A program made the position numbers and the translations under genes. A stretch of 64,000 nt of DNA. Source: a virus (Duplodnaviria; Heunggongvirae; Uroviricota; Caudoviricetes). Under the pieces are notes generated by a model. It was not told the origin of the DNA, did not search any database, and saw only the letters and a program-made list of their open reading frames with translations. Shown piece by piece: positions 19,684 through 53,455 of this stretch (the stretch's first letter is position 1; each line of letters begins with the position of its first letter). The stretch lies in the IMG/VR virus record IMGVR_UViG_3300025018_003790; one strand, given 5' to 3'.

Positions 19684-21087
19684 ACCGTTCCTTAAAATCT
19701 GCGGAAATCTAAGCATTTGACAATGCTCCAAATATTCGCAAACCTACTGGTTTAAAACCGGCACCGTAAGGTCCGGTAAAGAATCGATTCAAAATATTCC
19801 TCCCTGCATTTGTATCTGCGTTGCCTTTATGACCACAGCCAAGGCACAGGAATATCTCTCCATTCCGATTCTTCTTATCAGCATGACCACATTCAAGGCA
19901 AGTGATACTGGTATTATAACAGGGAACAGAACGGAAGGAAACACGGTTTTCTTCACATCCCATTTGAACCCGATTCAACCAATATCGCCACACCCACGAG
20001 CCGATAACTCGACGCATATTTTTGGAAAGGCGTCGTCTTTCCTTTGTCTTGTGATTCAAGTTTGACAACTTTTCAACAACCACAAGATCAATCTTTTCAT
20101 TAGAAACTATTTGTTTTGCAACCTCATCCATTCGTTGTTTCAATGCCCTTCTGGCTCGCTTTTGTCCTTTAGAGCCATGTTCACAACGAACTATTCTCTG
20201 CACACATTCTTTTATGTCTCTGCCCAACTGCTCACCGTTAGAAAAAGAAGCCAAGGCGTTGATGCCAGAGTCAATTCCGATAGCATTTTTGCCTTCCTTC
20301 TTCTCTCCTGTTTGAATCTCAAAGCAGAACTGGACATCTTTGTCTGTTATGATGTAGCTATTCAATCTCTGTCCCAAATTGTTCCATTTGTTAAAATGCT
20401 TGTGATATCTGATTGGCAAGTCAATGATAGTCTTTTCCCCAATAGAAGACAGATGTAGCCAACCATCGAATTCGTTTGTCTTAGATGGCTGAATATCAGC
20501 GATAGTGCAAGAGACATACATCCGATTGCCCTTATGCTTTGGCTTTTCTGCTGTCAATGCTTCTGCCTTCTGCTTCAACTGATTAGCTTTGTTGGAATAC
20601 TTCGCCTTTTCGGCTTTAGCTAACAATCGCTTCTTATCATTGGCTATTCGCTCTTGCGAGGCTTTAATCATATCTATTGCTTCACGAGCACAGACTTTTC
20701 TAAGTCTCGCTGATAGCCAAGACTCTGGTTTATTGACTATATCCTTTAGCAATTCTGCTTTGGTTGGGCAATCATCCCAGAAAGAATCAATGAACAGATT
20801 GCAAAGTCTACCATATTCAGTCAGCACAGTTTTAAGTTGCTCACGCTTGGTAGCGGTAGCGAATTTCAAAGAACACTGTGTTGACCGAATTATCTTCATT
20901 TTTCTGTCTTCGCCTCTGCTTCTTTAGCTTCCGCTTCTTTCTATTTTCACTACTTCTTTTGCCGTATATTTTGTTGGAAAATGACGCCATTAGAGAAGCC
21001 GGGTTTGCGAATGCTCACATGTTTCCCTTTCGTTTCCCGCAGTTATCCATAGATTTTCGCAGATTTAGTGCCAACTGTTATTAACCC
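19684..21087 (-). mobile_element. IS607-family element, internally deleted copy (tnpB only, with a tnpA 3' remnant)
   Basis: Right end ACCGTTCCTTAAAATCTGCGGAAATCTAAGCATTTGACAATGCTCCAAAT and left end ATCCATAGATTT(T/C)CGCAGATTTAGTGCCAACTGTTAT are shared with the copy at 47616..51623. Sequence 20900-20990 is homologous to the 3' end of tnpA in the other copy. Confidence 0.7.
19709..20899 (-). CDS. tnpB: TnpB (OrfB) RNA-guided endonuclease, IS607/IS605 family
   Basis: RuvC-I IGIDSGIN, RuvC-II VVVEKL, zinc finger CLECGH...CLGCGH, RuvC-III NADTNAGRNI; about 88% identical to the 47641..48831 copy, with the C-terminal half near-identical. Confidence 0.85.
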   Translation of the reverse strand: MKIIRSTQCSLKFATATKREQLKTVLTEYGRLCNLFIDSFWDDCPTKAELLKDIVNKPESWLSARLRKVCAREAIDMIKASQERIANDKKRLLAKAEKAKYSNKANQLKQKAEALTAEKPKHKGNRMYVSCTIADIQPSKTNEFDGWLHLSSIGEKTIIDLPIRYHKHFNKWNNLGQRLNSYIITDKDVQFCFEIQTGEKKEGKNAIGIDSGINALASFSNGEQLGRDIKECVQRIVRCEHGSKGQKRARRALKQRMDEVAKQIVSNEKIDLVVVEKLSNLNHKTKERRRLSKNMRRVIGSWVWRYWLNRVQMGCEENRVSFRSVPCYNTSITCLECGHADKKNRNGEIFLCLGCGHKGNADTNAGRNILNRFFTGPYGAGFKPVGLRIFGALSNA

Positions 21088-29586: not shown

Positions 29587-30072
29587 CTAAAACAAACTCC
29601 CAGAATCATCAGCCTCAAGTTTTGTCCTTGCTTTCTCGTCTTTCTGATCTTTGGTTAAAATTTCGCCATAACATTCAGAAACTGTTGAAACCAAATCTAA
29701 AATCTTTCCAAGTTGTGTCTTTTTTCCACTCGTAACTATTTTATAGCACTTCCCAATTTGAATTTTATCAGCAGAAGCCAATGTCAAAGGATAAACCTCA
29801 ATTGATGAAGCAGATGGGATCGGGATGATATCCCCATCTTCATCAACGCTTACAGGGGATCCTCTAACCGTTAGATATTCATCAGAAATTTCTGTTTGGG
29901 AGATGATTAAGATAGTAGAAATTTCAAATGGTTTTGTTTTAGATTCATATGTAGATTTTAAGAAAAAAGGTGTTATAATTGATGCAAACATAGCAATTAT
30001 TGAAATAACAACTAACAACTCAACTAGACTAAATCCTCTTCGTTTCCTGATCATTTCGGTCCTCTCTCTCAT
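29587..30072 (-). CDS. type IV pilin / pseudopilin-like protein
   Basis: N-terminus KRRGFSLVELLVVISIIAMFASI = prepilin leader, G|F(S)LxE cleavage/methylation motif with Glu at +5, then a hydrophobic helix. Confidence 0.5.
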   Translation of the reverse strand: MRERTEMIRKRRGFSLVELLVVISIIAMFASIITPFFLKSTYESKTKPFEISTILIISQTEISDEYLTVRGSPVSVDEDGDIIPIPSASSIEVYPLTLASADKIQIGKCYKIVTSGKKTQLGKILDLVSTVSECYGEILTKDQKDEKARTKLEADDSGSLF

Positions 30073-30076: not shown

Positions 30077-32020
30077 TCAGATAGTTTTTAGTCTTTCTAG
30101 TTCATCAAGTTTTAAGAAATAGAACCCGAAAACAGTAGGATACTGCAAGGTTCTTTCTGTGTCAAGATCAATATCTTCCAAATGAGTTCCCTGTGGTTTT
30201 TGAACCCACTTATGAATGTTGCCAAAGAATCTAATAAAAAATTTTTTCACCCAATCAACGATTTGGTTGTGTAAATAATCTTCAAATTTTTCAAAGAGGA
30301 TCAATGCTATTTCATATGGTGATTTCCCATGAGTTACCAATAATTCATAACAAGAGTCTAAAACTTCAAATGGCATTAATTCTCTTTCATCTTCTTGGTT
30401 TTCTGCAAGTTCCGCAGAAGCAACAGTTTTGTAGATCAATCTAGCAAGAACAATCGCAAGTTGTGCGCTCTGTTCGTCGTTTTGATTTGCAAGTGCTTTT
30501 AGATAAAAATACTCCAAAATTTTGTTAATCTTTGTTTTTCGGCAACCAGAGATTGGGGCAAAATCTCCTTGCATATCACCAAGTTTTGTCGCATACCCAA
30601 CGGCTGTTTCCGACATATTGCTTGTGCAGAGCACAAGCCCTCGACAAATATTTGAAAGATTGGCAATTTTTGTTGCACGGATTCTCGCTTGTATATTTTG
30701 ATCTGCAATTCTGTAATCCGCCTCTCCAAAACCAAGCCCTTCATTCAATTTACGCAAATCTACTGATTCTCTTTGAAACGGTTCAGCAATTGATTGTTCG
30801 TAAAAATTAAGACCAAGTGTTTCACATAAATCCTTTGAAATATTTCTGGTAGCATCAGAGTTATAAGATGTTGGGAAAGAGACACAGGTAACAACATCGT
30901 GAGGATTCAAATTATTTCTGATTGCCCATTCATAAGCTAAAATTGCAACCAAGACAGAATCTCGGCCACCAGAAATAGAGATTAACATCCTATCAAAAGT
31001 ACCAACTTTTCTGAAATAATCACCCATTCCCATAATAATTGCATTAATTATTTCTTCGATTTCATCAAAAACTACAACTTTTTCTTGTTTTTTAATTCTT
31101 GATCGATCAATGTTTATTCCCTGTGGAATTTTGACTGTATAAATAGAAGGAATTAACTTTTCTCTTTCAATAAAATCTTCTGCTTGACTTTTCCAGGTTG
31201 TATCTCTTGCCCTTGATGCCCAGACTTCATCAAAATCAACATCTTGGATAACAATTCCTGGTTGGAATCGTTCCAATTCAGCTAAACATTCACCCTCTTG
31301 AATAATATAGCCACCACCATCAAATGAAAGTTCTCCGTTCCCACCAACTTGATATGCTGCTAGAAGAATCGAATGATCATCAATTGATCTTTGTCTCAAC
31401 ATCATTTTTCGATTGTTTTCGACTCCTGATCTAAAAGGCGATGCGTTCAAAATAGCATGAACAACTGCGCCTTCATAACCATGGTGCCTCATTGGCCCAT
31501 CTGGCACCCAAGAGGTTTCACAAATTTCACAAGAAAAAATGAAGGAACCATTAATTTCAAAAAGGAGATCGCCAAAATCTGGATTCTCTAAACCAAAACC
31601 AATTTTTGTTAAATCAAATTGTTTGCCTTCTGTGGTTGTTCTTTTTTCATAAAAAATACCATAGTTCGGAAGATGTTGTTTGGGGGTGATACCGACAACT
31701 TTACCTTTATGAATCACAAAAGCACAATTAAAAATTCCACGACTCGGGATCGGCAGGAATCCACCAATCACAAAAATTGTATCTAGATACATTGTAGCTT
31801 CACAAAATCTATAAATTTCTTCTATTTCTCGGTGAAAGAAAAATGGCAACAAAAGAAAATCGCTACAAGGATAACCTGTTACACAACCTTCTGCATAAAC
31901 CAATAGATTACAACCAAGATCATTTGCATGAGAAGCATAAGGAAGCATTAAATCTACATTGTTCTTAAAATCACCAACTTTAGGATTCATGGAGACAACA
32001 CCGAGACGTGCTTTTGACAT
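30077..32020 (-). CDS. nadE: glutamine-dependent NAD+ synthetase
   Basis: N-terminal CN-hydrolase (nitrilase) domain, C-terminal NAD synthetase domain with PP-loop ISISGGRDSVLVAI (SGGxDS); 647 aa. Confidence 0.8.
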   Translation of the reverse strand: MSKARLGVVSMNPKVGDFKNNVDLMLPYASHANDLGCNLLVYAEGCVTGYPCSDFLLLPFFFHREIEEIYRFCEATMYLDTIFVIGGFLPIPSRGIFNCAFVIHKGKVVGITPKQHLPNYGIFYEKRTTTEGKQFDLTKIGFGLENPDFGDLLFEINGSFIFSCEICETSWVPDGPMRHHGYEGAVVHAILNASPFRSGVENNRKMMLRQRSIDDHSILLAAYQVGGNGELSFDGGGYIIQEGECLAELERFQPGIVIQDVDFDEVWASRARDTTWKSQAEDFIEREKLIPSIYTVKIPQGINIDRSRIKKQEKVVVFDEIEEIINAIIMGMGDYFRKVGTFDRMLISISGGRDSVLVAILAYEWAIRNNLNPHDVVTCVSFPTSYNSDATRNISKDLCETLGLNFYEQSIAEPFQRESVDLRKLNEGLGFGEADYRIADQNIQARIRATKIANLSNICRGLVLCTSNMSETAVGYATKLGDMQGDFAPISGCRKTKINKILEYFYLKALANQNDEQSAQLAIVLARLIYKTVASAELAENQEDERELMPFEVLDSCYELLVTHGKSPYEIALILFEKFEDYLHNQIVDWVKKFFIRFFGNIHKWVQKPQGTHLEDIDLDTERTLQYPTVFGFYFLKLDELERLKTI

Positions 32021-32051: not shown

Positions 32052-32696
32052 TTAGATTAACAATTCATCAAAAAGTTCTGTATCGAGATTAGTTAAGCAA
32101 TTGACTTCAAATTTTGAAAGTTGTTTGCCGTTGATCCACCAACTTTTATTGCCATCAGCTAATTCAATAGCAGGCCCATCAAGGCGGTGAAGCTGGCCAT
32201 TTTGCAACCAAGATTTTGAACCATTGGCAAATTCAATTGCTGGGCCATCAAGGCGATGAAGTTTGCCGTTGAGCCACCATTCTTTTGTTCCGTCAAACCT
32301 TTCAATAGCTGGCCCATCAAGGCGATGAGATTTGCCATTCAATCTCCATTCTTTTGATCCGTCGGCATTTTCAATTGCTGGCCCATCAAGGCGGTGAGGC
32401 TGGCCATTTTGCCACCATTCTTTTGATCCATCGGCAAATTCCTTTGCTGGCCCATCAAGACGATGAGGTTTGCCGTTGATGAACCATTCTTTTACCCCAT
32501 TGGGCCAATCAACAGCAGGCCCATTAAGGCGATGAAGTTTGCCGTTGATGTACCAATGTTCTACTCCCTCGGGTGTTTGATATGCTGGCCCATCTTCTCG
32601 GTGAAGTTGGCCATTTAAAGTCCAAGTTTTTACGCCATTATTCTCGATCCTTAATTTTGGATTTTTTTTCATAGTTAACCTCAATTCATCAATCAA
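32052..32696 (-). CDS. MORN-repeat (variant) protein
   Basis: About eight tandem units of the WxNGKxHRLDGPAxE..DGSKEW form. Confidence 0.7.
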   Translation of the reverse strand: MIDELRLTMKKNPKLRIENNGVKTWTLNGQLHREDGPAYQTPEGVEHWYINGKLHRLNGPAVDWPNGVKEWFINGKPHRLDGPAKEFADGSKEWWQNGQPHRLDGPAIENADGSKEWRLNGKSHRLDGPAIERFDGTKEWWLNGKLHRLDGPAIEFANGSKSWLQNGQLHRLDGPAIELADGNKSWWINGKQLSKFEVNCLTNLDTELFDELLI

Positions 32697-33952
32697 TAAA
32701 TAGTTTCTTCAAAGAATTCGGTTGAATTATCCCAAACACGTTGATACCTTTCGACTTCACTCTTGGGGCCTTGTGCTTTCGCAAGATTGTTGCTAATTTT
32801 AACTGTTGAAACAGGTTCGTTGATCATCAAAGAACTTATCACTTCAACTGCTTTAACAATAATTGACAAAGGATCCGCACCAAGATCATTCGAGCAATTT
32901 GTACCAATCCCGAATTTAACACCAATCCTTCCACTGAAAGCTTCAAATAGTTTTTTAGCAAGTGGGGGATTTAATCCATCACTGAAAAAGATGACTTTTT
33001 TGAGTGGGTCAATACCTTGCGATTGATAGAAAGAAATAACCCTTTTACCGAACTTGAAGGGGTCGCCAGAATCATGCCTAATCCCTTTGTAAAAACCAGA
33101 AAGAAATCCAGCAAAATCAGCAAAAAATGCATCATCACCAAATGTATCCCCCAAAGCTATTGATAATGGTTTCCCATAAAAAAGTTTCCAATTTCTAAGG
33201 ACAAATCTTTGTGATTTCCTCAAAGATTCATCCCCACCAATTGCCCCCATTATTGCAGCTATAACCATATACAATTCGTGGGCTTGAGTCCCGCCTGGAA
33301 TTTGTACGTGTTTCATAGCTAAATTAATATTTGATGTCCCTAAACAAGAAGGACAATTCTCAACAAAATCCTCATAACATTCTTCTTGCCATTCAGGACT
33401 AAAAGCCCGCCTTGTCCCAAATTCTACCCACTCAAAACCAGGAATAGAATTGAATAATTCAATTTTTTCTTTTCTGCGGCGGCGGCCTTCTTTTTTAAGT
33501 TCTTCCATTTGATTTGGATATTTATACCGATAATAAAGAGCATTGATTATTGACATAATAAAGGTCTCTGAATAACTGGATCTAGCCCAATAATCTTGAG
33601 AGTCGATCAAAAATTGTCCATCCCGAATGTCAACATTGATTTTAGGCATTTGATAATTTTTTAAGAATTCAAAATAATCAGAAAAATCTTCTTTCTTATA
33701 CCCAACCCTGAATGAATCAGCAATGAATCCAATTTCGTTTGCAGAAAACCTTAATGATCTGCAATGATCTAATTCTTCTCTAACTGCTTCAATTGGAATA
33801 ACTTCAGCTAATTTATTGTCTTTTTTTCTATTGTTGAAAGCAAATCTAACAATAGGGTCTGGGAATCTTTCTTCAATGAAAGCCTGCATGGCAATTTTAT
33901 ACCAATCTGTATGCAAAAGAGTTTTGATAATTGGTTCTGGGTTTGTTAGCAT
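32693..33952 (-). CDS. pncB: nicotinate phosphoribosyltransferase-like enzyme (NAPRTase/NAMPT superfamily)
   Basis: N-terminal LLHTDWYKIAMQ matches the PncB signature LLDTDAYKLHMQ; real start probably the internal ATG at 33950-33952, preceded by GAGGAGGAAAG SD. Confidence 0.65.
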   Translation of the reverse strand: MLTNPEPIIKTLLHTDWYKIAMQAFIEERFPDPIVRFAFNNRKKDNKLAEVIPIEAVREELDHCRSLRFSANEIGFIADSFRVGYKKEDFSDYFEFLKNYQMPKINVDIRDGQFLIDSQDYWARSSYSETFIMSIINALYYRYKYPNQMEELKKEGRRRRKEKIELFNSIPGFEWVEFGTRRAFSPEWQEECYEDFVENCPSCLGTSNINLAMKHVQIPGGTQAHELYMVIAAIMGAIGGDESLRKSQRFVLRNWKLFYGKPLSIALGDTFGDDAFFADFAGFLSGFYKGIRHDSGDPFKFGKRVISFYQSQGIDPLKKVIFFSDGLNPPLAKKLFEAFSGRIGVKFGIGTNCSNDLGADPLSIIVKAVEVISSLMINEPVSTVKISNNLAKAQGPKSEVERYQRVWDNSTEFFEETIY

Positions 33953-34036: not shown

Positions 34037-34849
34037 TTACCCGAAGAGTCCGCTTGAGGCGGCCCCAGAGAAGCCCTTGGAGCTACGACTCATCGTTTGC
34101 GTCGTGCGTGAGGCGGCTTGGAACTTGAGCCGGACTTCTCGCTTCAAGGCGTCGGGGTCGGTGACCCCGACGCCGACTTCAACAATGTCTTTTTCGGGGA
34201 TTCCCATTCTTGTGAAAATATCTTTGTAGAAATCGGGCCTTGTTCCACCAATCCCCATAGCTGAAATTGTAATCCATTCATTAGGAACAATATCGTTTGT
34301 GATCAACGGAGCCAATTCTTCGGGGTTGCGGCCGGTGGTGTCGCCACCATCAGTCACAATCACAATCGCACCCCGAGGATCAATGTTGGCTGACCGAATG
34401 ACTTCATATTGTGCCAAAAAATCAGCAATAGCAGTTTCAATTGTGGGGATCAATGGGGTTCCGCCGCCGGGGAAATAATTCTGACGACTCAATCTTGTCG
34501 CCTGCTCAACAGGCATGAAAGAATCTAGCATCCCGTTGTTGAGTGTAAATGTGAGAACCAAAATATCATCCCTGACCTTCGAGGCTTCCATGCCATCAAG
34601 GATACAATTGAATCCTTCAATGATACAATCTTCAAATCCACTCAAACTTCCGCTATCATCAAGAATAATCAACATCAAAAATGCACTGGAACTTTCCAAA
34701 TCATCAGGGTCAATTGTTACAGCATCACGAATTGAAGTTGCAATTCCAGGTTGAGCAATTAGATTGCTTGCAGCCGATGAAAGCTCCCCATTACCAAATG
34801 CTTCATTAAATGCACGCTCAATATCGGTGAGTCCTTGGTTTTCAGACAT
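34037..34849 (-). CDS. von Willebrand factor A domain protein (TerY-like)
   Basis: MIDAS motif IILDDSGSLSG (DxSxS) and later T/D ligands; GC-rich C-terminal third. Confidence 0.7.
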   Translation of the reverse strand: MSENQGLTDIERAFNEAFGNGELSSAASNLIAQPGIATSIRDAVTIDPDDLESSSAFLMLIILDDSGSLSGFEDCIIEGFNCILDGMEASKVRDDILVLTFTLNNGMLDSFMPVEQATRLSRQNYFPGGGTPLIPTIETAIADFLAQYEVIRSANIDPRGAIVIVTDGGDTTGRNPEELAPLITNDIVPNEWITISAMGIGGTRPDFYKDIFTRMGIPEKDIVEVGVGVTDPDALKREVRLKFQAASRTTQTMSRSSKGFSGAASSGLFG

Positions 34850-34894
34850 CGGGATCGTCCTTTCGCCTTCCGTAGTTTAGATACGTTCACCAGT

Positions 34895-36025
34895 TCAGAG
34901 TCGGATTCCCCACTCTTCAATCGGAACGATCCTATCGCCGTCAAACATCTTCACAAATTTCATTCCAGCATCAGCAAATTTCTTGTAAGAAACTTCAGAA
35001 ATTGCATCAAATGGGACACCTTCAAATCCAACCGAAGGATTCGGTGGAATGTCGGGAACAGGAGAAGTTCCGTCACGAACGATCAGGACCTTCTGTGCCA
35101 GCGACGGATCCAATCCCATAATTCTTTCCAACAAATGATCAATGCAACATTTCACACAATGCGTTTTTGCTTCACCCTTGATGATCAAATAATCAACAGC
35201 AAGCAATTGGTTGATGAAGGTATCATCGTCTTCACCAACTTTGTATCCACCAAATGTTTCCGTAACTTCTGGACCCAATGGAGAAAAATGTTCCGTGTTG
35301 GGCCAAGTGCCCTTGATTGAAAAATCGAATTGAGATTTTCTTGCAACTGTGTGGAAAAATGCAAGTTCATACAAGGCCGGGATAAGCGCATGGCTCGGCT
35401 CACCAATCCCGCCGTGGTAGGTCCAAACTGTATGAAGGTATTTCCCCGTGTCCTCAAGTTCTTTGGTGTAGAAAAGAGAATGTTTGACCATCATTGCATA
35501 ATTACCCTTCCCGTCATCGGTCGGGAAAACATAATGTGCAATATCGGGATTCGGCATCCAAATTCTATTCTTGATATCTTCGTTTTTGATCACCGTAAAT
35601 GGACCTGGGAAGTTGCCATTCCGGTCAACCCAATAGATCGGGTGAAAAATTTGCATCGGGTAGTGCGAATCAAGAGTAATGAAAAATCTAGAAATATGAT
35701 CTAAATTAGCATAGGACCAACGACAGGTTCTCTCAACATCTCCAAGAGCACCTGGGACAACCAATTCATATCCGGGGATACAGAAAGTGATCTGAAAATC
35801 GACCCAAAGGACGCCAATTTTTACTTTATCGTTGAGATGATGTTCAACATTATTTGTTTTTGCCCAATCAACAGCGTCTTGTGCTCGTTGTTCCTTGGGG
35901 GTTGGCCAAACTTCTCCGAGCCGGGGCATGGTGTCCCGCTCGAAGAAAGTTGGCAAGGGTAGCAGTCTCGCATCTGGCATGGTCAAGGCTCCTTGTTGAC
36001 TGGTTAGTCGCCGAGATTCTCGCAC
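34895..36025 (-). CDS. cysteine-hydrolase (isochorismatase/nicotinamidase)-like protein
   Basis: KIGVLWVDFQITFCIPG resembles the isochorismatase-family D-x-Q-x-x-F start and KGEAKTHCVKCCI a candidate nucleophile cysteine, but the D-to-C spacing is much longer than in PncA. Confidence 0.35.
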   Translation of the reverse strand: MRESRRLTSQQGALTMPDARLLPLPTFFERDTMPRLGEVWPTPKEQRAQDAVDWAKTNNVEHHLNDKVKIGVLWVDFQITFCIPGYELVVPGALGDVERTCRWSYANLDHISRFFITLDSHYPMQIFHPIYWVDRNGNFPGPFTVIKNEDIKNRIWMPNPDIAHYVFPTDDGKGNYAMMVKHSLFYTKELEDTGKYLHTVWTYHGGIGEPSHALIPALYELAFFHTVARKSQFDFSIKGTWPNTEHFSPLGPEVTETFGGYKVGEDDDTFINQLLAVDYLIIKGEAKTHCVKCCIDHLLERIMGLDPSLAQKVLIVRDGTSPVPDIPPNPSVGFEGVPFDAISEVSYKKFADAGMKFVKMFDGDRIVPIEEWGIRL

Positions 36026-36026
36026 G

Positions 36027-37928
36027 TCACACAGAGAATGTCAAGCGGCGCAGACTCTTTCCTGCGAACGAGAACACAGTCCCGTCGCTAGAGACCCAAA
36101 CAACATCTCCATCTGAAATAAATTTTGAGGTATCAGGGAATTCTCGGGTCAAAGCAAACTCTCCACGATCTACTTCAAATCTTTTCAATCCTTCATCCGT
36201 AGCAACAAACAAATATCTACTGATGGCTGATTTACTTCCCATAGATTTCATTAATTCTTTATTCTTTTCTTCGTCGTCTGAAAATGCTAAAATATCTCCA
36301 GCAGAATTAACAACCAAACATTTGTTTTTAAGCTTCGGGCCATCTTTATGTGAGATGAAAATCCAAGCATAATCTTTTGAGAAACAGACATTCATATCAA
36401 TCAATTGTCCAGTGATTCTCGGGAAATCATTAATTATACTTTTGCCTTGACCTTCAACGGGAAAGGTAAAAGCAGAATAAAACGCTCCAACTCTAAACCA
36501 ACCAAAACCGAAATTTTCACCAATCCAAATCTTTGTTCTTCTCTGAAGAGCAGAACATATTTTTTTACTAGAAATCCCATCCCCATTCTTATAAACATTC
36601 CCGTTTTCCAACCAAAAATAAGCATTTGAATTTGCATCAATCATGGGGATGTTATCAACAACATCTAATTGTCCTTTATAACAAACCTCTCCATTTTTGA
36701 TAACTGAAAACTGGCTATTTTCCGCAAAAACTGTTAATTTACCACAAACCCTAATTCTTGATTTTGATGATTTCGGAAGATATTCGGTTGAGATAACTTC
36801 TCCATTTTCACGCAAAATAATCCTATCTTCTAATCTCACCAAAAGCATTTTGTTATTTTGTAACTGTGCAAATAAAATTCTTTTTGTTCTTTCCATTGGA
36901 GAAGATAGAACAATCTCACTTTTGACATTCCCCATAATTTGAATCGTTTGAGTCACAACCCCCCCAGCCCCACCACAAGAGGGACATGAGTTTCTCATGT
37001 GGACAGATCCACAAGTTGAACAAGTTGTAAATCTTAATGATTCTAATAGCCTTTTTGGAATAGGTTCTCTTCTATCTTGAACAAAACAATTATAGAAAAT
37101 CTGTAAAAGATCATCATTGATGTATCCAAATGGCATTGCATTTTTGGGGAATCCAACTTGTTTTTCATCGAAGACGGTTATCCTATTCCTTCTTCGATAA
37201 ACCCAAGTTTCATCTCTTGTCATTTTACTCGGGGGTGTAAACTTGCCACCATAAGGGCCTTCAAAAGTTAGACCAGTGAAAAGAAGACAGAGATATCCAT
37301 ACCAGTCAGATTGAACACTATGTCTATTTGAGAATTTTATTTCATTAGCATCTAAATCACAATTTAATGGATCAACATAATCAACAGAAAAAACACGGCA
37401 AGGCCAAGAATCATATTGCATACTATCTGCGTCAATAAAATATGGAGTCAAATCTGCATTAGAAACCATTAAGTTAAATTCACTCACATCTCCAACAACA
37501 ACCTTTTGTGAGTGAATTTCTTGCATCGTGTTAGCAAAACCAAGAAAAATATTCAAGATATCATTTATATCTTTTGACCCTCTAAATTTTTTATTAAACC
37601 ATCTTGAAAGCAGAACATGATCTGACAAAAGTTGCATGGTGTAACCAATAACCATTTTGTTATTCAGAATCAAATCAGTTGGGCTTACAACATTAGATGG
37701 TAAATTTCTTGGAAATGCTGGCAGTTTTGATTGATATTCGTCAATTCTATCTTTGACTGCTTTTTGTCTCCAAGGTTCTGTGAAATCTGGGTGATTCGGT
37801 GGTTTATAAATCTTAAAAAGGATATTCCCCAATTTGTAAATAGTTGCTTCGCCACCCTCTGAAAAGTAGTTGTTTACATCATCAATTTTCTCTGTCCGAC
37901 CGTTAACCTGGATGTTGAAGTTACCCAT
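36027..37928 (-). CDS. atypical Ser/Thr protein kinase-like protein with zinc ribbon and repeat-rich C-terminal domain
   Basis: Gly-rich loop FSEGGEATIYKLGN, Lys in LFKIYK, catalytic-loop-like VVVGDVSEFNLMV, DFG-like FIDADS, then CSTCGSVHMRNSCPSCGG zinc ribbon; start overlaps the stop of the PP2C gene. Confidence 0.5.
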   Translation of the reverse strand: MGNFNIQVNGRTEKIDDVNNYFSEGGEATIYKLGNILFKIYKPPNHPDFTEPWRQKAVKDRIDEYQSKLPAFPRNLPSNVVSPTDLILNNKMVIGYTMQLLSDHVLLSRWFNKKFRGSKDINDILNIFLGFANTMQEIHSQKVVVGDVSEFNLMVSNADLTPYFIDADSMQYDSWPCRVFSVDYVDPLNCDLDANEIKFSNRHSVQSDWYGYLCLLFTGLTFEGPYGGKFTPPSKMTRDETWVYRRRNRITVFDEKQVGFPKNAMPFGYINDDLLQIFYNCFVQDRREPIPKRLLESLRFTTCSTCGSVHMRNSCPSCGGAGGVVTQTIQIMGNVKSEIVLSSPMERTKRILFAQLQNNKMLLVRLEDRIILRENGEVISTEYLPKSSKSRIRVCGKLTVFAENSQFSVIKNGEVCYKGQLDVVDNIPMIDANSNAYFWLENGNVYKNGDGISSKKICSALQRRTKIWIGENFGFGWFRVGAFYSAFTFPVEGQGKSIINDFPRITGQLIDMNVCFSKDYAWIFISHKDGPKLKNKCLVVNSAGDILAFSDDEEKNKELMKSMGSKSAISRYLFVATDEGLKRFEVDRGEFALTREFPDTSKFISDGDVVWVSSDGTVFSFAGKSLRRLTFSV

Positions 37929-38844
37929 TCTTCCTTCTCCTGATTGCGATCAATGAGGTATCATCAATCAGGAGTGAATTCTCTGTCCGAACTTTTCTAT
38001 TGTCCCAATCAACAACAGTCCTATTGGCTTGCATCATGCCAAATAAACGTTGCAAAGTTTGCGGGTTTCTGAAAAAAACATCAGTTGAAATTATTTCATC
38101 AATAGAAGGGACTACCTTGTCGGTTCTGCCAGGAAGAAGTTCCCCTTGAGCTTCTTCCAAGAACATGACCCCATCTGATCCTACAACAAGACTTTCAACA
38201 TCTTCTGTCGCAAGCTCTTCATGGAATGAAAATTCGAAACAAAGTGGTTGAGTTTCATGGAAACTTGAATATTTACTTGCAATAATCTCTTCGTGTGTTT
38301 CTCTGAACCCTTCAATTGCACTATAGACAATATAAGGCGGGGCATTATTTTCAAATGGACCTATTTGAGTCCTTTGACCATTAAGATAATAAACCCCATC
38401 ACCAATTGAAAAAATAGTTGTTTTATCTTCTGTTACAACAAACCCAATCAATGTTGCAGCAAAAGTATCAATCATATCTTTAATAGTTTCTAATAAACAA
38501 AAATTCTTATTAGATTGATAGATTCCAAAACTTGTTCTTTTGATTAAAGAGACCAAAGATAAATGTAGACTACTATAAATAAATTCGTTTATAGTATCCC
38601 AATATCCAGTCCTGATTTGAGTCGCAATTGAATTAGCTAAATAATTAGCAAGGATACTTGATCCAATTTGGGCGTTATCGGTGCTCCCACACCCGTCTGA
38701 AACAACTCCAATAAGAAAAAGTTTATGATGATTAAGAGCAATGGAATCTTGATTCGGCAATCCTTTCAAGCCTATTTCATTGCCTAAGTGTTCTCTACCA
38801 ATGATTGAAGCACTGGTAGTTTCGAACCTCTCCATCAGATCCAT
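37921..38844 (-). CDS. PP2C-family (PPM) Ser/Thr phosphatase
   Basis: LIGVVSDGCGSTDNAQIGS (DG.GG-like), FSIGDGVYYLNG (GDSR-like), VVGSDGVMFLEE (SDG-like) metal-binding motifs. Confidence 0.7.
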   Translation of the reverse strand: MDLMERFETTSASIIGREHLGNEIGLKGLPNQDSIALNHHKLFLIGVVSDGCGSTDNAQIGSSILANYLANSIATQIRTGYWDTINEFIYSSLHLSLVSLIKRTSFGIYQSNKNFCLLETIKDMIDTFAATLIGFVVTEDKTTIFSIGDGVYYLNGQRTQIGPFENNAPPYIVYSAIEGFRETHEEIIASKYSSFHETQPLCFEFSFHEELATEDVESLVVGSDGVMFLEEAQGELLPGRTDKVVPSIDEIISTDVFFRNPQTLQRLFGMMQANRTVVDWDNRKVRTENSLLIDDTSLIAIRRRKNG

Positions 38845-38863: not shown

Positions 38864-39457
38864 TCAGGTGGTTGAATTTCGGCAATTAAAGCACAAACTA
38901 TCTAGGTTATCTAATGGGTATGGGGAAAGAGATTTACATTTTTTGCAAACACAAAGTTCTTTTAATTCTTCAATAGCATCTTGCATTAATCCTAAATTTA
39001 ATTCATAAGCATCAAACAAAAGATCTTGACCAGAAACAGATTTAATTAATGGGAGATTATTCAGTGCCAAGTAGAACAGAAATTTATCAATCATTCCTAT
39101 TTCCTCGACGGTTAATGTCCAGTCTTCTTTTCTTTTAGAGACATAATCAATCAAATCAGAGTCAAACGAATATTCGGAGATACTCGTCCTCAATTTAGCT
39201 TTTTGAATTTTGTCCCAAGCTTTTTGTTTTATAAGAACTAGAAGTCTTTTATCACATTCAATATCTTTAATTCCACCACAATCATCATAGATACCAATGA
39301 AAATTTGTGAAAAAACATTTACTGATTGAAAAGGTCCTGAATATTGTTCCATATAATTAGATAAAAATTGTTTTTCATTAGCTAATAAACCAACTACTTT
39401 TTCATCTTCTATAATTGGAATTCTAGTTGCAGCGCACAAAGAATTGTAATATCCCAT
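38864..39457 (-). CDS. hypothetical protein with C-terminal zinc ribbon
   Basis: CVCKKCKS...CFNCRN at the C-terminus. Confidence 0.4.
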   Translation of the reverse strand: MGYYNSLCAATRIPIIEDEKVVGLLANEKQFLSNYMEQYSGPFQSVNVFSQIFIGIYDDCGGIKDIECDKRLLVLIKQKAWDKIQKAKLRTSISEYSFDSDLIDYVSKRKEDWTLTVEEIGMIDKFLFYLALNNLPLIKSVSGQDLLFDAYELNLGLMQDAIEELKELCVCKKCKSLSPYPLDNLDSLCFNCRNSTT

Positions 39458-39895
39458 TAGGGAGCCCCTTCTTTTGTTTTAGTTGTTATTTCTACATATT
39501 CTTTATCTTCAATCATTTCCTTAATCATAGCAATAATATCAGATTCTGAAACAAAATCACCAATTTCCCTATCAACGCCCTTTATTGCTGATTTTCTGCT
39601 GACATTATTTAAAGAGGTGCTATTTTTTTGAACACCAACCACCCAAGCACCACTATCTATATCATCAAGTAATTCACAAAAAACTTTTGCTTTAAAATCA
39701 TTGGTCTTCGATGAATTATTAGAATTAAAATTAACAAAAACAATATCAATTTTTTCTAGCAAAGTTTTTAAAGAATTTTTCCCATCAGATAGATCTGGAA
39801 GTTTTAAACTTATAATATAAAACATATTTATCAATTTTACAGCCCAAGCAGATGATCTTTCTTCACTAAAACCAACCAATAGAGCATTATTCTTG

Positions 39896-40465
39896 TCATC
39901 CATCTTTTTTATCTTCCGTTTCTTCGGTTGCTTCCGTTTCTTCGGTTGCTTCCGTTTCTTTGACTTCTTCCGTTTCTTCGGTTGCTTCGGCTTCTTCAGC
40001 GCTGGTAATAGCTTCTAGAATGTTTTGGATAATTATTTTTGATGCTGCAAATTTGTAAAGTTTTACTCCACCAGCTTCTTCTATTTTGACTCTTATTGGT
40101 TCACTAATTATTTGTGTTAAACCAAAAACAACAAGACTTGGGAAATTCTGGACTAATGATTTTATAACAGTCAGATTTTTTGAAGCAACGCTTTCCACAG
40201 GGACAATGATTGAACAGTAATCTTTATCTTGAATTAACTTCGCTAAACTTTTTCCACCATTTTCTAAATCTTTTTTGACAATTGAGTTCACCTCAAAAGC
40301 ATCTAATAGTTTTTCAACAAAACTATTTACGAAGTTATCGGGGGCGAGACCAACGATCAAGATGCTCTGCTTCTCGGATGACATATTCGTTCTACCTTTC
40401 GGTGGTTTTTGTGATTCGATCAAATTGTTCTTTGAGAGCAGGAAATTCTTGCATCCTTTGTTCAA
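39896..40465 (-). CDS. hypothetical protein with acidic TEETEA repeat tail
   Basis: ORF track; 18-bp tandem repeats TTCCGTTTCTTCGGTTGC (about 4 copies, 39914-39985) encode the repeat. Confidence 0.4.
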   Translation of the reverse strand: MNKGCKNFLLSKNNLIESQKPPKGRTNMSSEKQSILIVGLAPDNFVNSFVEKLLDAFEVNSIVKKDLENGGKSLAKLIQDKDYCSIIVPVESVASKNLTVIKSLVQNFPSLVVFGLTQIISEPIRVKIEEAGGVKLYKFAASKIIIQNILEAITSAEEAEATEETEEVKETEATEETEATEETEDKKDG

Positions 40466-40731: not shown

Positions 40732-41676
40732 TCAGCCGGTGGGTGGAACAAAATCTTCCCTTAATCTCTCAGGTGTCACTAAGCAAGGATCTAAATAGTT
40801 GCCCTTTTTTGAATTACATAAGCAACACATTGTTTGAATGTTGACCGGATTATCATTCCCACCTTTTGACTTTGGAACAATATGATCATGAGTCATCAAA
40901 TAATTCTCACCATCATAAAGATTGAAGTGTGGTCTATTTTGATTGACAGGAAGTTCTAAAACAAATTTAACACCAACTCGCCCACATTCAGAACAAACAA
41001 GTGAATCTTTAAACGCCATCAAACGAACAGAATTTAATCTTGATTTATAAAAACAACCATCTATTTCTATTTCTAGATCATGCGTAGATCCAAGTAATGG
41101 AACTATTTCATCAACTGAAAACTCTTTCAAATTAATCAAATTTGTGTTCCCAAGTTTTGTCCCAACATTCCCTTGGTTTTTCTTTTTTCTCTTCTTCTTT
41201 TTGCCCTGCCGTTCCACAAAAGGTAGGGTTTTGCTTATTCTAGAAGAACTTATGGAATTCATTACTTTAATAAACTCAAAATATTCAAGATCTATTTTTG
41301 AAAATAAATCTAATTTGGTTATATCCGCAAACATATTTATTTTCAAAATAGCAGGGACAAATCTTGTGTCAATTCTTTCTGTGTCGAAAGAATAACTTTC
41401 AAAATCTTCTTCGTCCATTTCTAAATCAATAAGTGCATCAATTCTATCAAAAACATCTAAACAAAAAAACAACAATTTCTCTTCATCTTTTAATTCCACA
41501 CCACTAATTAATTCTATCAATCCCATAGAAAGAGAGGTTATCTTAGATAATGGAATTTGATCTTCTAATTCAAAAAAGTCAATTTCACCTAACCCTAAAA
41601 TGACACAGATAGCTTTTTCACCTGGAAAAATAGGCATTTTAGAGATTGCACAGACCGGATGTTTTAATTCAGACAT
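40732..41676 (-). CDS. HNH endonuclease (free-standing, 314 aa)
   Basis: C-terminal HDHIVPKSKGGNDNPVNIQTMCCLCNSKKGN = HNH motif with CxxC...CxxC. Confidence 0.6.
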   Translation of the reverse strand: MSELKHPVCAISKMPIFPGEKAICVILGLGEIDFFELEDQIPLSKITSLSMGLIELISGVELKDEEKLLFFCLDVFDRIDALIDLEMDEEDFESYSFDTERIDTRFVPAILKINMFADITKLDLFSKIDLEYFEFIKVMNSISSSRISKTLPFVERQGKKKKRKKKNQGNVGTKLGNTNLINLKEFSVDEIVPLLGSTHDLEIEIDGCFYKSRLNSVRLMAFKDSLVCSECGRVGVKFVLELPVNQNRPHFNLYDGENYLMTHDHIVPKSKGGNDNPVNIQTMCCLCNSKKGNYLDPCLVTPERLREDFVPPTG

Positions 41677-47640: not shown

Positions 47641-48831
47641 CTAAGCATTTGACAATGCTCCAAATATCCGCAAACTCACTGGTTTGAAACCGGCACCGTA
47701 AGGTCCGGTGAAAAATCGATTCAAAATATTCCTCCCTGCATTTGTATCTGCGTTGCCTTTATGACCACAACCAAGGCACAGGAATATCTCTCCATTCCGA
47801 TTCTTCTTATCAGCATGACCACATTCAGGGCAAGTGATACTGGTATTATAACACGGAACGGTTCGGAAGGAAACACGGTTTTCTTCACACCCCATTTGAA
47901 CCCGGTTCAACCAATATCGCCACACCCACGAGCCAATAACTCGACGCATATTTTTGGAAAGGCGTCGTCTTTCCTTTGTCTTGTGATTCAAATTGCTAAG
48001 CTTCTCCACAACCACAAGATCAATCTTTTCATTAGAAACTATTTGCTTCGCAACCTCATCCATTTGTTGCTTCAATGCCCTTCTGGCTCGCTTTTGTCCT
48101 TTAGAACCATGTTGGCAACGATTGATGCGATTAACGCAACCTTTTATATCTCTGCCCAACTGCTCGCCGTTGGAAAAAGAAGCTAAAGCATTGATACCAG
48201 AATCAATCCCTATGGCATTTTTGCCTTGCTTCTTTTCACCAGTTTCAATTTCAAAGCAAAATTGAACAGAATCTTTTGTTATGATATAGGAATTAAGTCT
48301 TTTTCCCAAGTTGTCCCATTTATTGAAATGCTTATGGAAACGAATTGGCAGGTTCATCACGATCTTATTTCCTATTGAAGCTAGATGAAGCCAAGCATCG
48401 AATTCATTAGTTTTAGACATTTGAAGATCAGCAATAGTGCAACTGACATTCATTCTATTGCCTTTGTGCTTTGGCTTCACGGCTATCAATGACTCTGCTT
48501 TCTGTCTCAATTGGTTCGCCTTTGTTGCGCTTTTAGCTTTTTCTGCTTTGGCAAGAAGCCTCTTCTTTTCGTTGTTGGTTTTTTCTTGGGAAGCCTTGAT
48601 CATGTCAATTGCTTCTCTGGCACAAACCTTTCTAAGTCTAGCTGAAAGCCAAGAATCAGGAGCGTTCACGATGTCTTTTAACAATTCTGCTTTGGTTGGG
48701 CATTGCTCCCAGAAGGAATCGATGAACAGGTTGCAAACTCTTCCGTATTCGGTCAACACAGCACCAAGCTCCAGCCTCTTTGCGGAGGTTGAAAACTTGA
48801 GGCTGCACTGTGCTGACCGAATAATTTTCAT
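47641..48831 (-). CDS. tnpB: TnpB (OrfB) RNA-guided endonuclease
   Basis: Same RuvC-I/II/III and zinc-finger motifs as 19709..20899. Confidence 0.85.
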   Translation of the reverse strand: MKIIRSAQCSLKFSTSAKRLELGAVLTEYGRVCNLFIDSFWEQCPTKAELLKDIVNAPDSWLSARLRKVCAREAIDMIKASQEKTNNEKKRLLAKAEKAKSATKANQLRQKAESLIAVKPKHKGNRMNVSCTIADLQMSKTNEFDAWLHLASIGNKIVMNLPIRFHKHFNKWDNLGKRLNSYIITKDSVQFCFEIETGEKKQGKNAIGIDSGINALASFSNGEQLGRDIKGCVNRINRCQHGSKGQKRARRALKQQMDEVAKQIVSNEKIDLVVVEKLSNLNHKTKERRRLSKNMRRVIGSWVWRYWLNRVQMGCEENRVSFRTVPCYNTSITCPECGHADKKNRNGEIFLCLGCGHKGNADTNAGRNILNRFFTGPYGAGFKPVSLRIFGALSNA

Positions 48832-49132: not shown

Positions 49133-50650
49133 TTACAGGTACATAACAGTTTTCTTGAGCTTGCCTAGTTCAATAACATTCTCTATAGGTTCGAACCAAA
49201 AATACTTTCCCTCCCAATCCGGCTGCCTTTGAATAAGTGAATTCCAACTATCAATGTGATTTGAATTTGGGCCGTCACAAAAAGTAAGTCTTTCTTTTCC
49301 AGCGAAGGCGCTTTCTCTCGGATTCCTATCCAATAGGGCCTTTGCCCTATCAATCCCCTTTTCACCAGATACCGTATTCGTAGCAACGCTCTTCTTTATT
49401 ATTTCCTCTGGAATATCCTCATACTTATCAAACACAATCATCTTGTATTGTCTTTTAATTTTGCTTTGAGAATTCCATCTCCCACCAGGGATTATGGTGA
49501 ATTCTCCATCAAAGAATCCGATGATATTATCCACCAATTTAGTGCTTGAGATATAAATCGGGAACACGTCGTCTTGTTTCCTGTGTCCTGATTTACAAGG
49601 AAAGCCTAAATATCTACCGATGGACTGATATAAAGAATCATCGGTTTTATAAGCATCAATATGCATACGAATATGCATAGTCTCATTTAGTGTCTTTCCT
49701 GCTCTCATTGCGCCTTTGATTATAATAATAGAAGGCTTTTTGGGTTGCTCTGATAAAGCACCATCTAACTGACTAATTTCGTAATCTCCATCAATAGAGT
49801 ATTCCCTAAACCAAATATTGGGATAGTTTTGCCCCAAATATCTTTCTATAACGAAGGGGGCTTGCCCCTGTGTCCTAATCACAAGATGACCGTTTCCATT
49901 CTTGTTGCAAAGACCAATGAATTCGTCTAGTCTTTCTTTAAAGAATGGAGTGACACAAGACTTCCTATCATCGGCCACTTTTGTTTCATGAACGACTACA
50001 AATCTCCCATCATTCTTTGCGTCTTCGATTGAATAATAATTATCACTCAATTCCAATTGGATACAAGAAAATGAATTCTCTCTTATTTTTGACTGAAGGA
50101 CAGATGCAAATGGGGTAGCTGACAGAGAAAGAACATAGTTATGACCATTATTCCAATCAGAAATAGGCATACCATATTCTATGCCCAATTTATCAAACAG
50201 CACATTAAGTGGACGACTATTGCCTAGAGCCTGATGGCATTCGTCAAGGAAGATTAGCCTTCTATCTACCGTTAGATCTATTTTATCGGGGATCGCATAT
50301 TCTGCCCCGCTTTTCTTAGTAAAATCTGCGAGATGGAAAACTTTAACCCGACAAGAAGCATTAGGCTCGTAGATACCAGCGTTCTGTAACCTTCGTTGCT
50401 GTTGTATTTTGAGTTCATTATCGGAAATATGAAGGATAAACAATATTTCGTAAGTTAGTCCTTCTTTCTCCCATTCATCTTTCATCATTTTAGCGACAAA
50501 GGTAGCCACTCCAGTTTTCCCCTGTTGGGTTTGAGCAATTAGCAATGGCGGGCCTTCATGCTTGGCAAATTCTTCTATAACCTCTTCTCCTGCTTTAATT
50601 TGTTCATAGTAAATAACTTCATCTCCAATTTTCATTTCAGATAGGCTCAT
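49133..50650 (-). CDS. SF2 helicase-like ATPase (DExH type)
   Basis: Motif I AQTQQGKTGVA, motif II FLDECHQAL, motif III SATP, motif VI-like QSIGRYLG; start overlaps the tnpA stop by 14 nt. Confidence 0.55.
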   Translation of the reverse strand: MSLSEMKIGDEVIYYEQIKAGEEVIEEFAKHEGPPLLIAQTQQGKTGVATFVAKMMKDEWEKEGLTYEILFILHISDNELKIQQQRRLQNAGIYEPNASCRVKVFHLADFTKKSGAEYAIPDKIDLTVDRRLIFLDECHQALGNSRPLNVLFDKLGIEYGMPISDWNNGHNYVLSLSATPFASVLQSKIRENSFSCIQLELSDNYYSIEDAKNDGRFVVVHETKVADDRKSCVTPFFKERLDEFIGLCNKNGNGHLVIRTQGQAPFVIERYLGQNYPNIWFREYSIDGDYEISQLDGALSEQPKKPSIIIIKGAMRAGKTLNETMHIRMHIDAYKTDDSLYQSIGRYLGFPCKSGHRKQDDVFPIYISSTKLVDNIIGFFDGEFTIIPGGRWNSQSKIKRQYKMIVFDKYEDIPEEIIKKSVATNTVSGEKGIDRAKALLDRNPRESAFAGKERLTFCDGPNSNHIDSWNSLIQRQPDWEGKYFWFEPIENVIELGKLKKTVMYL

Positions 50651-51287
50651 TGTTTTCTTCCTTTTCTTTTTCAGCTTTACGCTTTTTCCTATTATCAGCA
50701 GACCGTTTTCCGTAAATTTTATTTGAAAAAGATGCCATCAGCGAAAGAATGTCTTCCACTAACTCTTCTTCATAACTCTTTCCAAGTATTTCTTCAACCC
50801 ATTCAATCTCGACACCGTGGCTTCGGAAGAATTTCACAAGAAACTCAAACATAAATCGGCACAACCGATCACGATGTTCAATGATAACCTTGTCAATCTC
50901 ACCTTCTTCAGCCAGTTTGAGAAGCCGGTTCAATTTTGGGCGATCATCCGACATTCCAGAAGCAACCTCTTCAAAAGTTGCCACGACGAAATATTTTTTA
51001 TCAACACAATATTTTGACAATCTTCCCGATTGTCTCCCTAAGTCGCCTTTTGTTTTTTGTTCTTGCGATGATACTCTAGCATATACCGCTACTCTGATAG
51101 TATCTCTAGTTTTCTCTGCCTCTTCGCCAATAAAAGCCTGAATATCTGATATTTTGTATCGCCTGTGACCACCGGGGGTTTTCATCGGGACAAGAGTTCC
51201 TGACTTGTCCCATTGGCGCAAGGTATCTATATTGACTCCAAGGATTTGTGAGGCTTCTCCTATGCTAACTAACTTCTGTTGCGCCAT
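50637..51287 (-). CDS. tnpA: IS607-type TnpA serine recombinase with N-terminal MerR-like HTH
   Basis: HTH LVSIGEASQILGVNIDTLRQWDKSG; resolvase catalytic block IRVAVYARVSSQEQ...GDLGRQ; 216 aa. Confidence 0.8.
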   Translation of the reverse strand: MAQQKLVSIGEASQILGVNIDTLRQWDKSGTLVPMKTPGGHRRYKISDIQAFIGEEAEKTRDTIRVAVYARVSSQEQKTKGDLGRQSGRLSKYCVDKKYFVVATFEEVASGMSDDRPKLNRLLKLAEEGEIDKVIIEHRDRLCRFMFEFLVKFFRSHGVEIEWVEEILGKSYEEELVEDILSLMASFSNKIYGKRSADNRKKRKAEKEKEENNEPI

Positions 51288-52362: not shown

Positions 52363-52370
52363 ATCAGACA

Positions 52371-52889: not shown

Positions 52890-53018
52890 TGCGCCTCCTT
52901 TAGATCACTTTTTATTTCATCATTCTCCCGTGAATCTTTAAGTTCCCATTCCATCCCAGGAAATTCTTTTTTGATAGCTTCCATTATTTCTTTTTGTTCA
53001 TCCGTCAAAGTTTGGTTC

Positions 53019-53453: not shown

Positions 53454-53455
53454 TT

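Follow-up and report, generated by a model that had tools for sequence, protein, structure and literature searches.

The 64,000-nucleotide stretch of DNA recorded in IMG/VR as IMGVR_UViG_3300025018_003790 (hereafter the window) carries, on its minus strand, a cassette encoding a PP2C-type phosphatase, a Ser/Thr kinase, a predicted nicotinamidase and a vWA-domain protein. A sequence-only reading of the window had described a triad of vWA protein, kinase and phosphatase. The three genes are real and share a strand, but the triad is not contiguous: the nicotinamidase gene (35980..34895) lies between those of the kinase and the vWA protein, and the unit is one of four genes, not three, the fourth being the nicotinamidase. 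In the order of transcription its members are as follows.

37921..38844, minus strand: PP2C-type Ser/Thr phosphatase of 307 amino acids, the first gene of the cassette (Pfam PP2C_2)
36027..37928, minus strand: Hanks-type Ser/Thr kinase of 633 amino acids (alignment A1, family profile, AlphaFold 2 model, Foldseek)
34895..35980, minus strand: predicted long-form nicotinamidase (PncA/Pnc1-like cysteine hydrolase) of 361 amino acids, between the kinase and vWA genes
34037..34849, minus strand: vWA-domain protein of 270 amino acids with a complete metal ion-dependent adhesion site, MIDAS (alignment A2, family profile, Pfam)

The phosphatase matches Pfam PP2C_2 (E = 1e-15; 58 bits, the cut-off being 24). 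Its five metal-binding Asp motifs (D33, D50-G51, D149, D224-G225 and D294-D295) show conservation of 98% or more among 97 homologues. The kinase gene overlaps that of the phosphatase, as had been read, with its ATG placed 8 nt before the phosphatase stop codon. Single-sequence searches of the kinase gave weak matches only, to RIO1, MkoA and the kinase domain of LanL/LanKC, all of them located at the catalytic loop; against the Protein Data Bank (PDB), single-sequence searches of the kinase, the nicotinamidase and the vWA protein gave nothing useful, and family profiles were used instead. The kinase protein consists of a kinase domain (residues ~1-295), a zinc ribbon (~298-320) and an all-beta, propeller-like domain (334-633). 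Across the 19 full-length homologues of alignment A1, which are 29-35% identical, the invariant residues are G25-G26-E27-A28, K39, H139, G146-D147, N152, D166-A-D168-S and D208-W209; the ribbon is of the Cys4 type (C303/C306/C315/C318), with H310 conserved beside it. These kinase residues and the ribbon cysteines hold up at 96-99% conservation among 103 homologues, whereas H310, invariant in A1, is not among the residues conserved at 90% or more in the larger set. The catalytic lysine and aspartate are both conserved (K39 and D147), so the concern raised with that reading, that the protein might lack them, does not apply. The family profile matches RSK, LanKC, Rio2 and Nop10 in the PDB; its alignment to RSK spans the catalytic loop to subdomain IX inclusive, and that to Nop10 falls on the ribbon. 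The AlphaFold 2 model (predicted local distance difference test, pLDDT, 87.7) has a kinase fold, with Foldseek matches to LRRK2 (kinase plus WD40), IRAK4, BRAF and Aurora (E = 1e-10 to 1e-7); in this model residues 334-633 form about 27 beta-strands and probably constitute a propeller-like sensor or docking domain. The kinase family is large and uniform: a threshold of E <= 1e-30 gives no fewer than 1,097 representative clusters, and almost every one of the best 150 is full length (~550-670 amino acids).

A word-index homology search with the vWA protein returned only the protein itself, and its homologues (24-33% identity) were therefore taken from loci found via the kinase. The MIDAS (D64-D65-S66-G-S68, T131 and D167-G168) is at least 94% conserved in 95 homologues (alignment A2 and a larger set), confirming that it is intact, and the family profile matches integrin I domains (E = 0.02) in an alignment that pairs their MIDAS motifs. 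Pfam VWA matches 3 of 42 family members, and the window protein matches phrog_7371 (3e-7). A C-terminal tail rich in serine and glutamine is conserved in most of the family.

The 361-amino-acid protein is called a long-form nicotinamidase, with predicted activity, because many of its homologues carry source labels such as 'nicotinamidase-related amidase' or 'isochorismatase', because the residues of a catalytic triad and a metal site are conserved, and because the nearest fold is yeast Pnc1. Its start is that annotated in public assemblies, the mechanically called open reading frame (ORF) beginning at a GTG at 36025; 317 homologues are detectable, at ~40% identity. D61, K223, C275 and D104-x-H106...H113 are invariant in a 45-sequence alignment (A3), all are present in the window protein, and all except H113 are at least 99% conserved in a 100-sequence set. 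By PncA-type structures, we take D61/K223/C275 to be the catalytic triad and D104/H106/H113 to be the metal site that holds the pyridine nitrogen. Profile matches to Mycobacterium tuberculosis PncA and the Acinetobacter baumannii nicotinamidase are weak and fall at the Asp and Cys motifs. The AlphaFold 2 model (pLDDT 83.8, with low-confidence loops at 67-72, 192-199 and 307-324) has an isochorismatase-like fold closest to nicotinamidases, Pnc1 being the best Foldseek match. In comparison with the long nicotinamidases of eukaryotes (yeast Pnc1 and Drosophila Naam), to which it is ~16% identical, the window protein has N-terminal and internal insertions specific to bacteria and phages. A domain of ~250 amino acids, with no match to Pfam or NCBIfam, is fused to the nicotinamidase N-terminus in five related loci (L009, at 11861-12630, L024, L028, L035 and L039) and is encoded separately beside NadE or the vWA protein in L017:5990-6715 and L035:14830-15612.

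Related loci were retrieved via the kinase from contigs that encode a homologue, from IMG/VR (14 contigs of 42-545 kb) and from GTDB genomes (457 species matched, 80 fetched), with locus profiles built iteratively from the window proteins. The resulting census of 101 loci, which is conditional on the query and not dereplicated, spans huge-phage contigs, bacteria of the candidate phyla radiation (CPR), cyanobacteria, DPANN archaea and others; the unit is present in culturable Pseudanabaena spp., Archangium gephyra and Argonema antarcticum. A phosphatase of the same family occurs in 96 of the 101 loci, the nicotinamidase in 96 and the vWA protein in 93, and the order PP2C-kinase-nicotinamidase-vWA is kept on one strand in 86 (82 exactly, 4 with an extra copy). 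Several of the incomplete loci are short or truncated contigs, and in three (L031, L037 and L038) the nicotinamidase is not adjacent to the kinase. Searching IMG/VR from the nicotinamidase side yielded 19 loci, 12 with all four genes (8 of them on new phage contigs) and 7 with a shorter nicotinamidase alone. Six of the 8 new phage contigs have a second order, nicotinamidase-vWA-PP2C-(ADP-ribosylglycohydrolase)-kinase, so that the pairs nicotinamidase-vWA and PP2C-kinase are both intact across the two arrangements; wherever it is present, even in the rearranged order, the vWA gene is paired with that of the nicotinamidase. Some 22 distinct phage contigs of IMG/VR, and most of the 80 fetched genomes, thus contain the genes together, and the co-conservation that the sequence-only reading required is observed. 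Three bacterial look-ups from the nicotinamidase side gave two stand-alone genes and one PP2C-nicotinamidase pair divergent from nrtR. The latter reduced form (L102:5198-8062, Oscillatoria sp. SIO1A7) has no kinase or vWA gene within 7 kb, and therefore ties the phosphatase directly to the nicotinamidase. The kinase family is nearly always tied to the nicotinamidase, whose own family extends beyond the cassette.

The surroundings of the cassette in these relatives, annotated after clustering all adjacent ORFs of the 101 loci, are dominated by NAD and ADP-ribose metabolism. NrtR, a repressor with NUDIX and winged-helix domains, is encoded in 57 of the 101 loci, usually directly upstream of the PP2C gene; 35 have a homologue of nicotinate phosphoribosyltransferase (NAPRTase) no more than 10 kb from the cassette, 25 an ADP-ribosylglycohydrolase (ARH; in cyanobacteria, between PP2C and kinase), 17 a fusion of a NadD-like adenylyltransferase with NAD kinase and 16 a NadE, followed by phosphoribosyl pyrophosphate synthetase (Prs, 6), NUDIX proteins (6) and canonical PncA (5). 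A complete array reads NrtR-PP2C-kinase-nicotinamidase-vWA-NadD/NadK-ARH-NUDIX-NAPRTase-Prs-NadE. Restriction, Ter or toxin genes are not recurrent among the neighbours of the 101 loci. A 165-amino-acid macro/DarG-like protein (NCBIfam DarG, 3e-5) is encoded beside the cassette in five phage loci (L018, L019, L021, L008 and L020), which hints at removal of ADP-ribose by the same gene set. In one Paceibacterota genome (L003:9175-20205, on a 742-kb contig), an array of PP2C, kinase, nicotinamidase, vWA, ARH, NadE, NAPRTase, NadM-NUDIX and NrtR genes separates rplB from rpsS, which looks like an insertion into the S10 operon.

De novo search for palindromes upstream of the PP2C gene recovered a putative 21-bp operator of the NrtR type, TAGTGT-N7-ACACTA, which agrees with the published form of NrtR sites (21-bp palindromes with a GT-N7-AC core; PMC2330246). 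Allowing no more than one mismatch, 1.74 Mb contain 110 occurrences, where our own calculation would predict ~4; 71 of the occurrences are just upstream of PP2C, 22 are at nrtR, and most of the others precede NAPRTase or PncA genes. The operator is directly upstream of PP2C in most bacterial loci. The only phage loci with such a box are L011 and L012 (IMG/VR contigs of 266 and 236 kb), where a perfect copy, TTAGTGTTATAAGTACACTAA, stands 40 nt upstream of the nicotinamidase gene (L011:2572 and L012:12336) with no nrtR in the locus; the box suggests that these phage nicotinamidases may be under an ADP-ribose-responsive repressor of the host. The sequence-only reading had considered the proximity of NAD-salvage genes unusual. 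Because NAD-gene neighbours and NrtR operators recur among the 101 loci, this adjacency is the rule and not an oddity: it is the defining context of the kinase family, which sits in the NrtR regulon. The four-gene unit is widespread, kept in the NAD-salvage operons of bacteria and repeatedly acquired by large phages.

In the window itself the cassette belongs to a tightly packed series of minus-strand ORFs running from 40465 to 29587 with overlaps or gaps of less than 90 nt, in which a scan for terminators and promoters (29-42 kb) found nothing above chance level. Other features of the window are listed here.

32693..33952, minus strand: NAPRTase (PncB; Pfam NAPRTase 5e-41 and NAPRTase_N 1e-15), the mechanically called ORF reaching a TTG at 33991
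32052..32696, minus strand: MORN-like repeat protein between the NAPRTase and NadE genes (repeat-type Pfam matches only)
30077..32020, minus strand: glutamine-dependent NAD+ synthetase, NadE (Pfam NAD_synthase 1e-33 and CN_hydrolase 2e-13; also phrog_36784 'NAD synthetase', 5e-56)
38864-40465, minus strand: group of three ORFs upstream (5') of the PP2C gene
52288-61036, minus strand: five tRNA genes (Leu-aag, Glu-ttc, Thr-tgt, Ser-tga and Arg-tct) within 9 kb

The repeat protein, the gene of which overlaps the NAPRTase stop codon, contains about eight units of the form G-x-W-x-NG-x-x-HR-x-DGPA, read by eye; it has homologues in three loci (phage locus L020 and two contigs identical to the window, L001 and L002) and is weakly linked to the system. 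Directly after NadE, a small protein (29587-30072) has a prepilin-type N-terminal methylation motif (Pfam N_methyl, 3e-8). An ORF of the CTP_transf_like type at 61082-61747 was considered as a nicotinate mononucleotide (NaMN) adenylyltransferase and rejected: it is phosphopantetheine adenylyltransferase (CoaD; E = 2e-24 to solved CoaD structures), a gene of coenzyme A biosynthesis on a phage-like element. The three ORFs at 38864-40465, which had been read as following the triad, are actually 5' of PP2C and were rejected as part of the system, with homologues in L001 and L002 only and none in other related loci. One of them, a zinc-ribbon ORF of 197 amino acids (38864-39457), shares with a 314-amino-acid HNH protein (40732-41676) a short N-terminal motif, C-A-x-x-x-x-P-I; the similarity between these two proteins is marginal and possibly due to chance (BLASTP E = 0.025), and that among the ORFs of the group is also marginal.

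The phage setting given to these genes by the sequence-only reading is plausible but unproven. Nearly all genes of the window share one strand, many being short ORFs without database matches, and the window also encodes a serine recombinase, an HNH protein and a DNA methylase. The window does look like part of a large mobile element or phage, because of its single-strand bias, tRNAs, TnpB pair, recombinase, HNH protein, methylase and unmatched short ORFs. The two TnpB/Cas12f1-like genes (19709-20899 and 47641-48831; 396 amino acids each, 87% mutual identity) are accompanied, at the second copy, by a serine recombinase with a MerR-type helix-turn-helix (50637-51287) and a ResIII helicase-like gene (49133-50650). 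A DNA similarity search of a phage collection found no match to the window, an exact 40-mer of the kinase gene had no match in an IMG/VR search, and PHROG and Pfam scans of the window ORFs gave few matches and recognised no structural genes. A related cassette-bearing contig, L005, has a phage portal gene. The proteins of the cassette are ~30-42% identical to all relatives alike, and their best matches gave no host assignment.

We propose with moderate confidence that the kinase and phosphatase, together with the vWA protein, form a TerY-P-like phospho-switch that controls the nicotinamidase and so gates entry into the Preiss-Handler pathway of NAD+ salvage. The nicotinamidase would catalyse the committed first step, deamidating nicotinamide, released by enzymes that consume or cleave NAD+, to nicotinate; NAPRTase would convert nicotinate to NaMN; an NaMN adenylyltransferase, presumably encoded by the host or elsewhere on the element, would produce nicotinate adenine dinucleotide (NaAD); and NadE would amidate NaAD to NAD+. 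The kinase and the PP2C phosphatase would act as a reversible switch with the nicotinamidase-vWA pair as the client, phosphorylation changing what the MIDAS of the vWA protein binds and thereby gating nicotinamide into the deamidated route, which is costly in ATP. The phosphorylated protein, the sign of the regulation and the signal received by the propeller are putative parts of this scheme. In cellular genomes the transcription of the whole unit would in addition be under NrtR as an ADP-ribose-responsive repressor, whereas on the element represented by the window, where the unit lies in a long co-directional array without an NrtR gene or operator, it would raise or rebuild NAD+ during infection. 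The presumed benefit to the phage would be the reconstitution of NAD+ after NAD+-cleaving defences release nicotinamide, in parallel with NARP1-3 and by different chemistry.

Several observations weigh against this proposal. The link between kinase and nicotinamidase is one of co-localisation, which does not identify a substrate, and the 101 loci include two that are identical to the window (L001 and L002) and apparent near-duplicate pairs such as L003/L004 and L061/L062. The long nicotinamidase also stands alone, in two of the three bacterial look-ups and 7 of the 19 IMG/VR loci found from its side, and can therefore do without the switch. The window protein matches no isochorismatase model of Pfam or NCBIfam (E <= 0.1). 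In the kinase, the alpha-C glutamate (E64) is the majority residue of A1 and not invariant. Hidden Markov models (HMMs) from related loci found no NaMN adenylyltransferase, ARH, Prs, NUDIX or NrtR in the 64-kb window, and the pathway is therefore incomplete as far as the 64 kb show; no NrtR box above chance was found in the window either. Finally, the four genes of the window may have different histories, the two pairs perhaps having been acquired at different times, because the guanine-plus-cytosine (GC) content of the nicotinamidase and vWA genes (44% and 47%, or 42-44% at third codon positions) differs from that of PP2C and kinase (35-36%, or 27% at third positions); that of the window overall is 35%.

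The three-part architecture of vWA, PP2C and kinase is already known. The TerY-P triad was reportedly described by Anantharaman, Iyer and Aravind in 2012. As summarised in PMC11090510, TerY-P combines a vWA protein and a PP2C phosphatase with a Ser/Thr kinase that is fused C-terminally to a zinc ribbon; triads of this type are reported there from defence contexts, and a TerY-P-like module (Gao et al. 2020) as an anti-phage system that stands alone. To the extent of that definition the window resembles TerY-P in encoding all three parts together (the vWA protein with its MIDAS, the phosphatase, and the kinase with a ribbon C-terminal to the kinase domain), and in the proposed logic of a phosphorylation-dependent switch on a metal-binding vWA protein. 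It differs in the obligate nicotinamidase between kinase and vWA, in the additional beta-propeller-like domain of ~300 amino acids after the ribbon of the kinase, and in the setting of the family, where NAD salvage and the NrtR regulon stand in place of Ter, restriction or CoCoNuT genes. PADLOC models, including those of defence-type TerY-P, match neither the PP2C phosphatase nor the window vWA protein nor any of 42 vWA homologues, and give only weak MkoA and generic kinase matches to the kinase. The domain calls of the sequence-only reading, and its term TerY-P-like, are right at the level of architecture; at the level of sequence there is no link to the defence-type models. A Deinococcus radiodurans operon (DRA0331-0334) is described in a preprint (bioRxiv 10.64898/2026.01.23.701218) as a signalling module that likewise has vWA, Ser/Thr kinase and PP2C genes; as described there, it differs in having a forkhead-associated (FHA) protein, no nicotinamidase and a DNA-damage context.

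Operons of the Preiss-Handler pathway ('salvage I') comprising pncA-pncB-nadD-nadE are known to be regulated by NrtR, which ADP-ribose is reported to release from DNA (Rodionov et al. 2008, PMC2330246). The loci related to the window share with them the NrtR gene, the 21-bp GT-N7-AC operators, the PncB, NadD and NadE neighbours and the logic by which salvage would be induced when ADP-ribose signals consumption of NAD+. Kinase, PP2C and vWA genes are absent from the regulons listed in that paper (PMC2330246), and the nicotinamidase here is divergent, at ~345-360 amino acids, and escapes Pfam Isochorismatase. Among phages, NAD+ reconstitution is known as NARP1 (Adps and Namat), NARP2 (Nampt and Nmnat) and NARP3 (PnuC and NadR). 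The window set resembles these as phage-borne enzymes that would rebuild NAD+ from breakdown products or precursors, with resistance to NAD+-depleting defences as the plausible gain. It differs in its predicted deamidated route (nicotinamidase, NAPRTase, NadD, NadE) and in a dedicated kinase-phosphatase-vWA layer; a counter-defence activity of the set is conjectural. HMMs from related loci found no Prs-like or NMNAT-like ORF in the window, Nampt, PnuC and NadR models not having been searched directly; the phosphoribosyltransferase of the window is a NAPRTase by Pfam. A tentative extension of the proposal, which we consider possible but doubtful, is that the unit represents a fourth, regulated phage route of NAD+ reconstitution via Preiss-Handler enzymes (nicotinamidase, NAPRTase, NadD, NadE and optionally NadK), transferred horizontally among CPR bacteria, cyanobacteria and huge phages, in which the TerY-P-type switch senses the NAD+/ADP-ribose state and gates the first enzyme. 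The searchable literature, which leaves aside some subscription-journal work including the original 2012 Ter paper, holds no description of the unit as a nicotinamidase or isochorismatase with PP2C, vWA or NrtR. The obligate nicotinamidase partner, the kinase propeller, the setting in the NrtR regulon and the unit's spread to huge phages are apparently undescribed.

The cassette could instead be a conflict system, with the nicotinamidase as effector and the TerY-P-like part as a sensor that switches on the removal of nicotinamide. In a cell this would starve phage NAD+ reconstitution that needs nicotinamide, or relieve product inhibition of SIR2 or TIR NADases; in a phage it would redirect nicotinamide into a route that host defence cannot block. 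Such a role is in keeping with the defence contexts and stand-alone anti-phage module reported in PMC11090510, with the use of nicotinamide by phage NARP1 and NARP2, with the patchy distribution over distant phyla and phages (including the rplB-rpsS island of one Paceibacterota genome), and with ARH, macro-like and NUDIX neighbours that handle ADP-ribose. We nevertheless regard it as rather unlikely: the dominant neighbours (NAPRTase, NadD-NadK and NadE) rebuild NAD+ from nicotinate under NrtR, PADLOC recognises neither PP2C nor vWA and the kinase domain only weakly, and restriction, Ter and toxin genes do not recur nearby. Of the link to defence or counter-defence that had been suggested from the sequence, the part that stands is a possible role through NAD+ metabolism only, no Ter or restriction genes being found near the cassette.

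It is unlikely, too, that the triad acts on other proteins (NrtR, NAPRTase, NadE or a host protein), or that the kinase phosphorylates a small molecule, with the nicotinamidase merely co-transcribed. The kinase has a large, sensor-like, beta-rich domain of its own, L031, L037 and L038 lack an adjacent nicotinamidase, and NrtR is reportedly regulated by a post-translational modification, acetylation, in mycobacteria (PMC6800001). Phage copies, however, keep the four genes yet have no NrtR, the kinase is rarely without the nicotinamidase (96 of 101 loci have both, and one or more of the others are truncated contigs), and PP2C-nicotinamidase pairs exist without any other NAD gene. A small-molecule substrate also fits poorly with a protein-kinase C-lobe that includes the D-W of subdomain IX, and with a partner that is a protein phosphatase.

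By analogy, the vWA protein might be an assembly or metal-delivery factor for a metal-dependent nicotinamidase, its kinase and phosphatase tuning maturation. The adjacency of the nicotinamidase and vWA genes in both gene orders, their similar GC content, distinct in the window from that of PP2C and kinase, the conserved Asp/His/His metal site of the nicotinamidase and the MIDAS, itself a metal site, all speak for this reading, which is improbable given that stand-alone long nicotinamidases exist without a vWA protein and that an AAA+/MoxR ATPase, with which vWA maturation factors usually work, is not recurrent in the loci. That a generic TerY-P triad, which the architecture does fit by the published definition, came to lie beside NAD genes by chance and works independently is very improbable and is contradicted by the neighbourhood census, since the nicotinamidase in 96 of 101 loci, NrtR in 57 and 71 operators upstream of PP2C are far beyond chance.

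If the tentative reading as a fourth, regulated route of NAD+ reconstitution is correct, no earlier TerY-P-like triad would have had its enzymatic client identified, and the long-unresolved function of such triads would become directly testable. Triads of the TerY-P type occur widely and have no settled mechanism. The one described here is tied to a single, easily assayed enzyme, and offers clear metabolic read-outs in nicotinamidase activity, NAD+ pools and control by NrtR. The cassette and its neighbours add to large phages a candidate set of NAD+-rebuilding genes that is distinct from NARP1-3 and bears on immunity by NAD+ depletion. They also suggest that nicotinamide deamidation may be controlled post-translationally in CPR bacteria, with their minimal metabolism, and in cyanobacteria.

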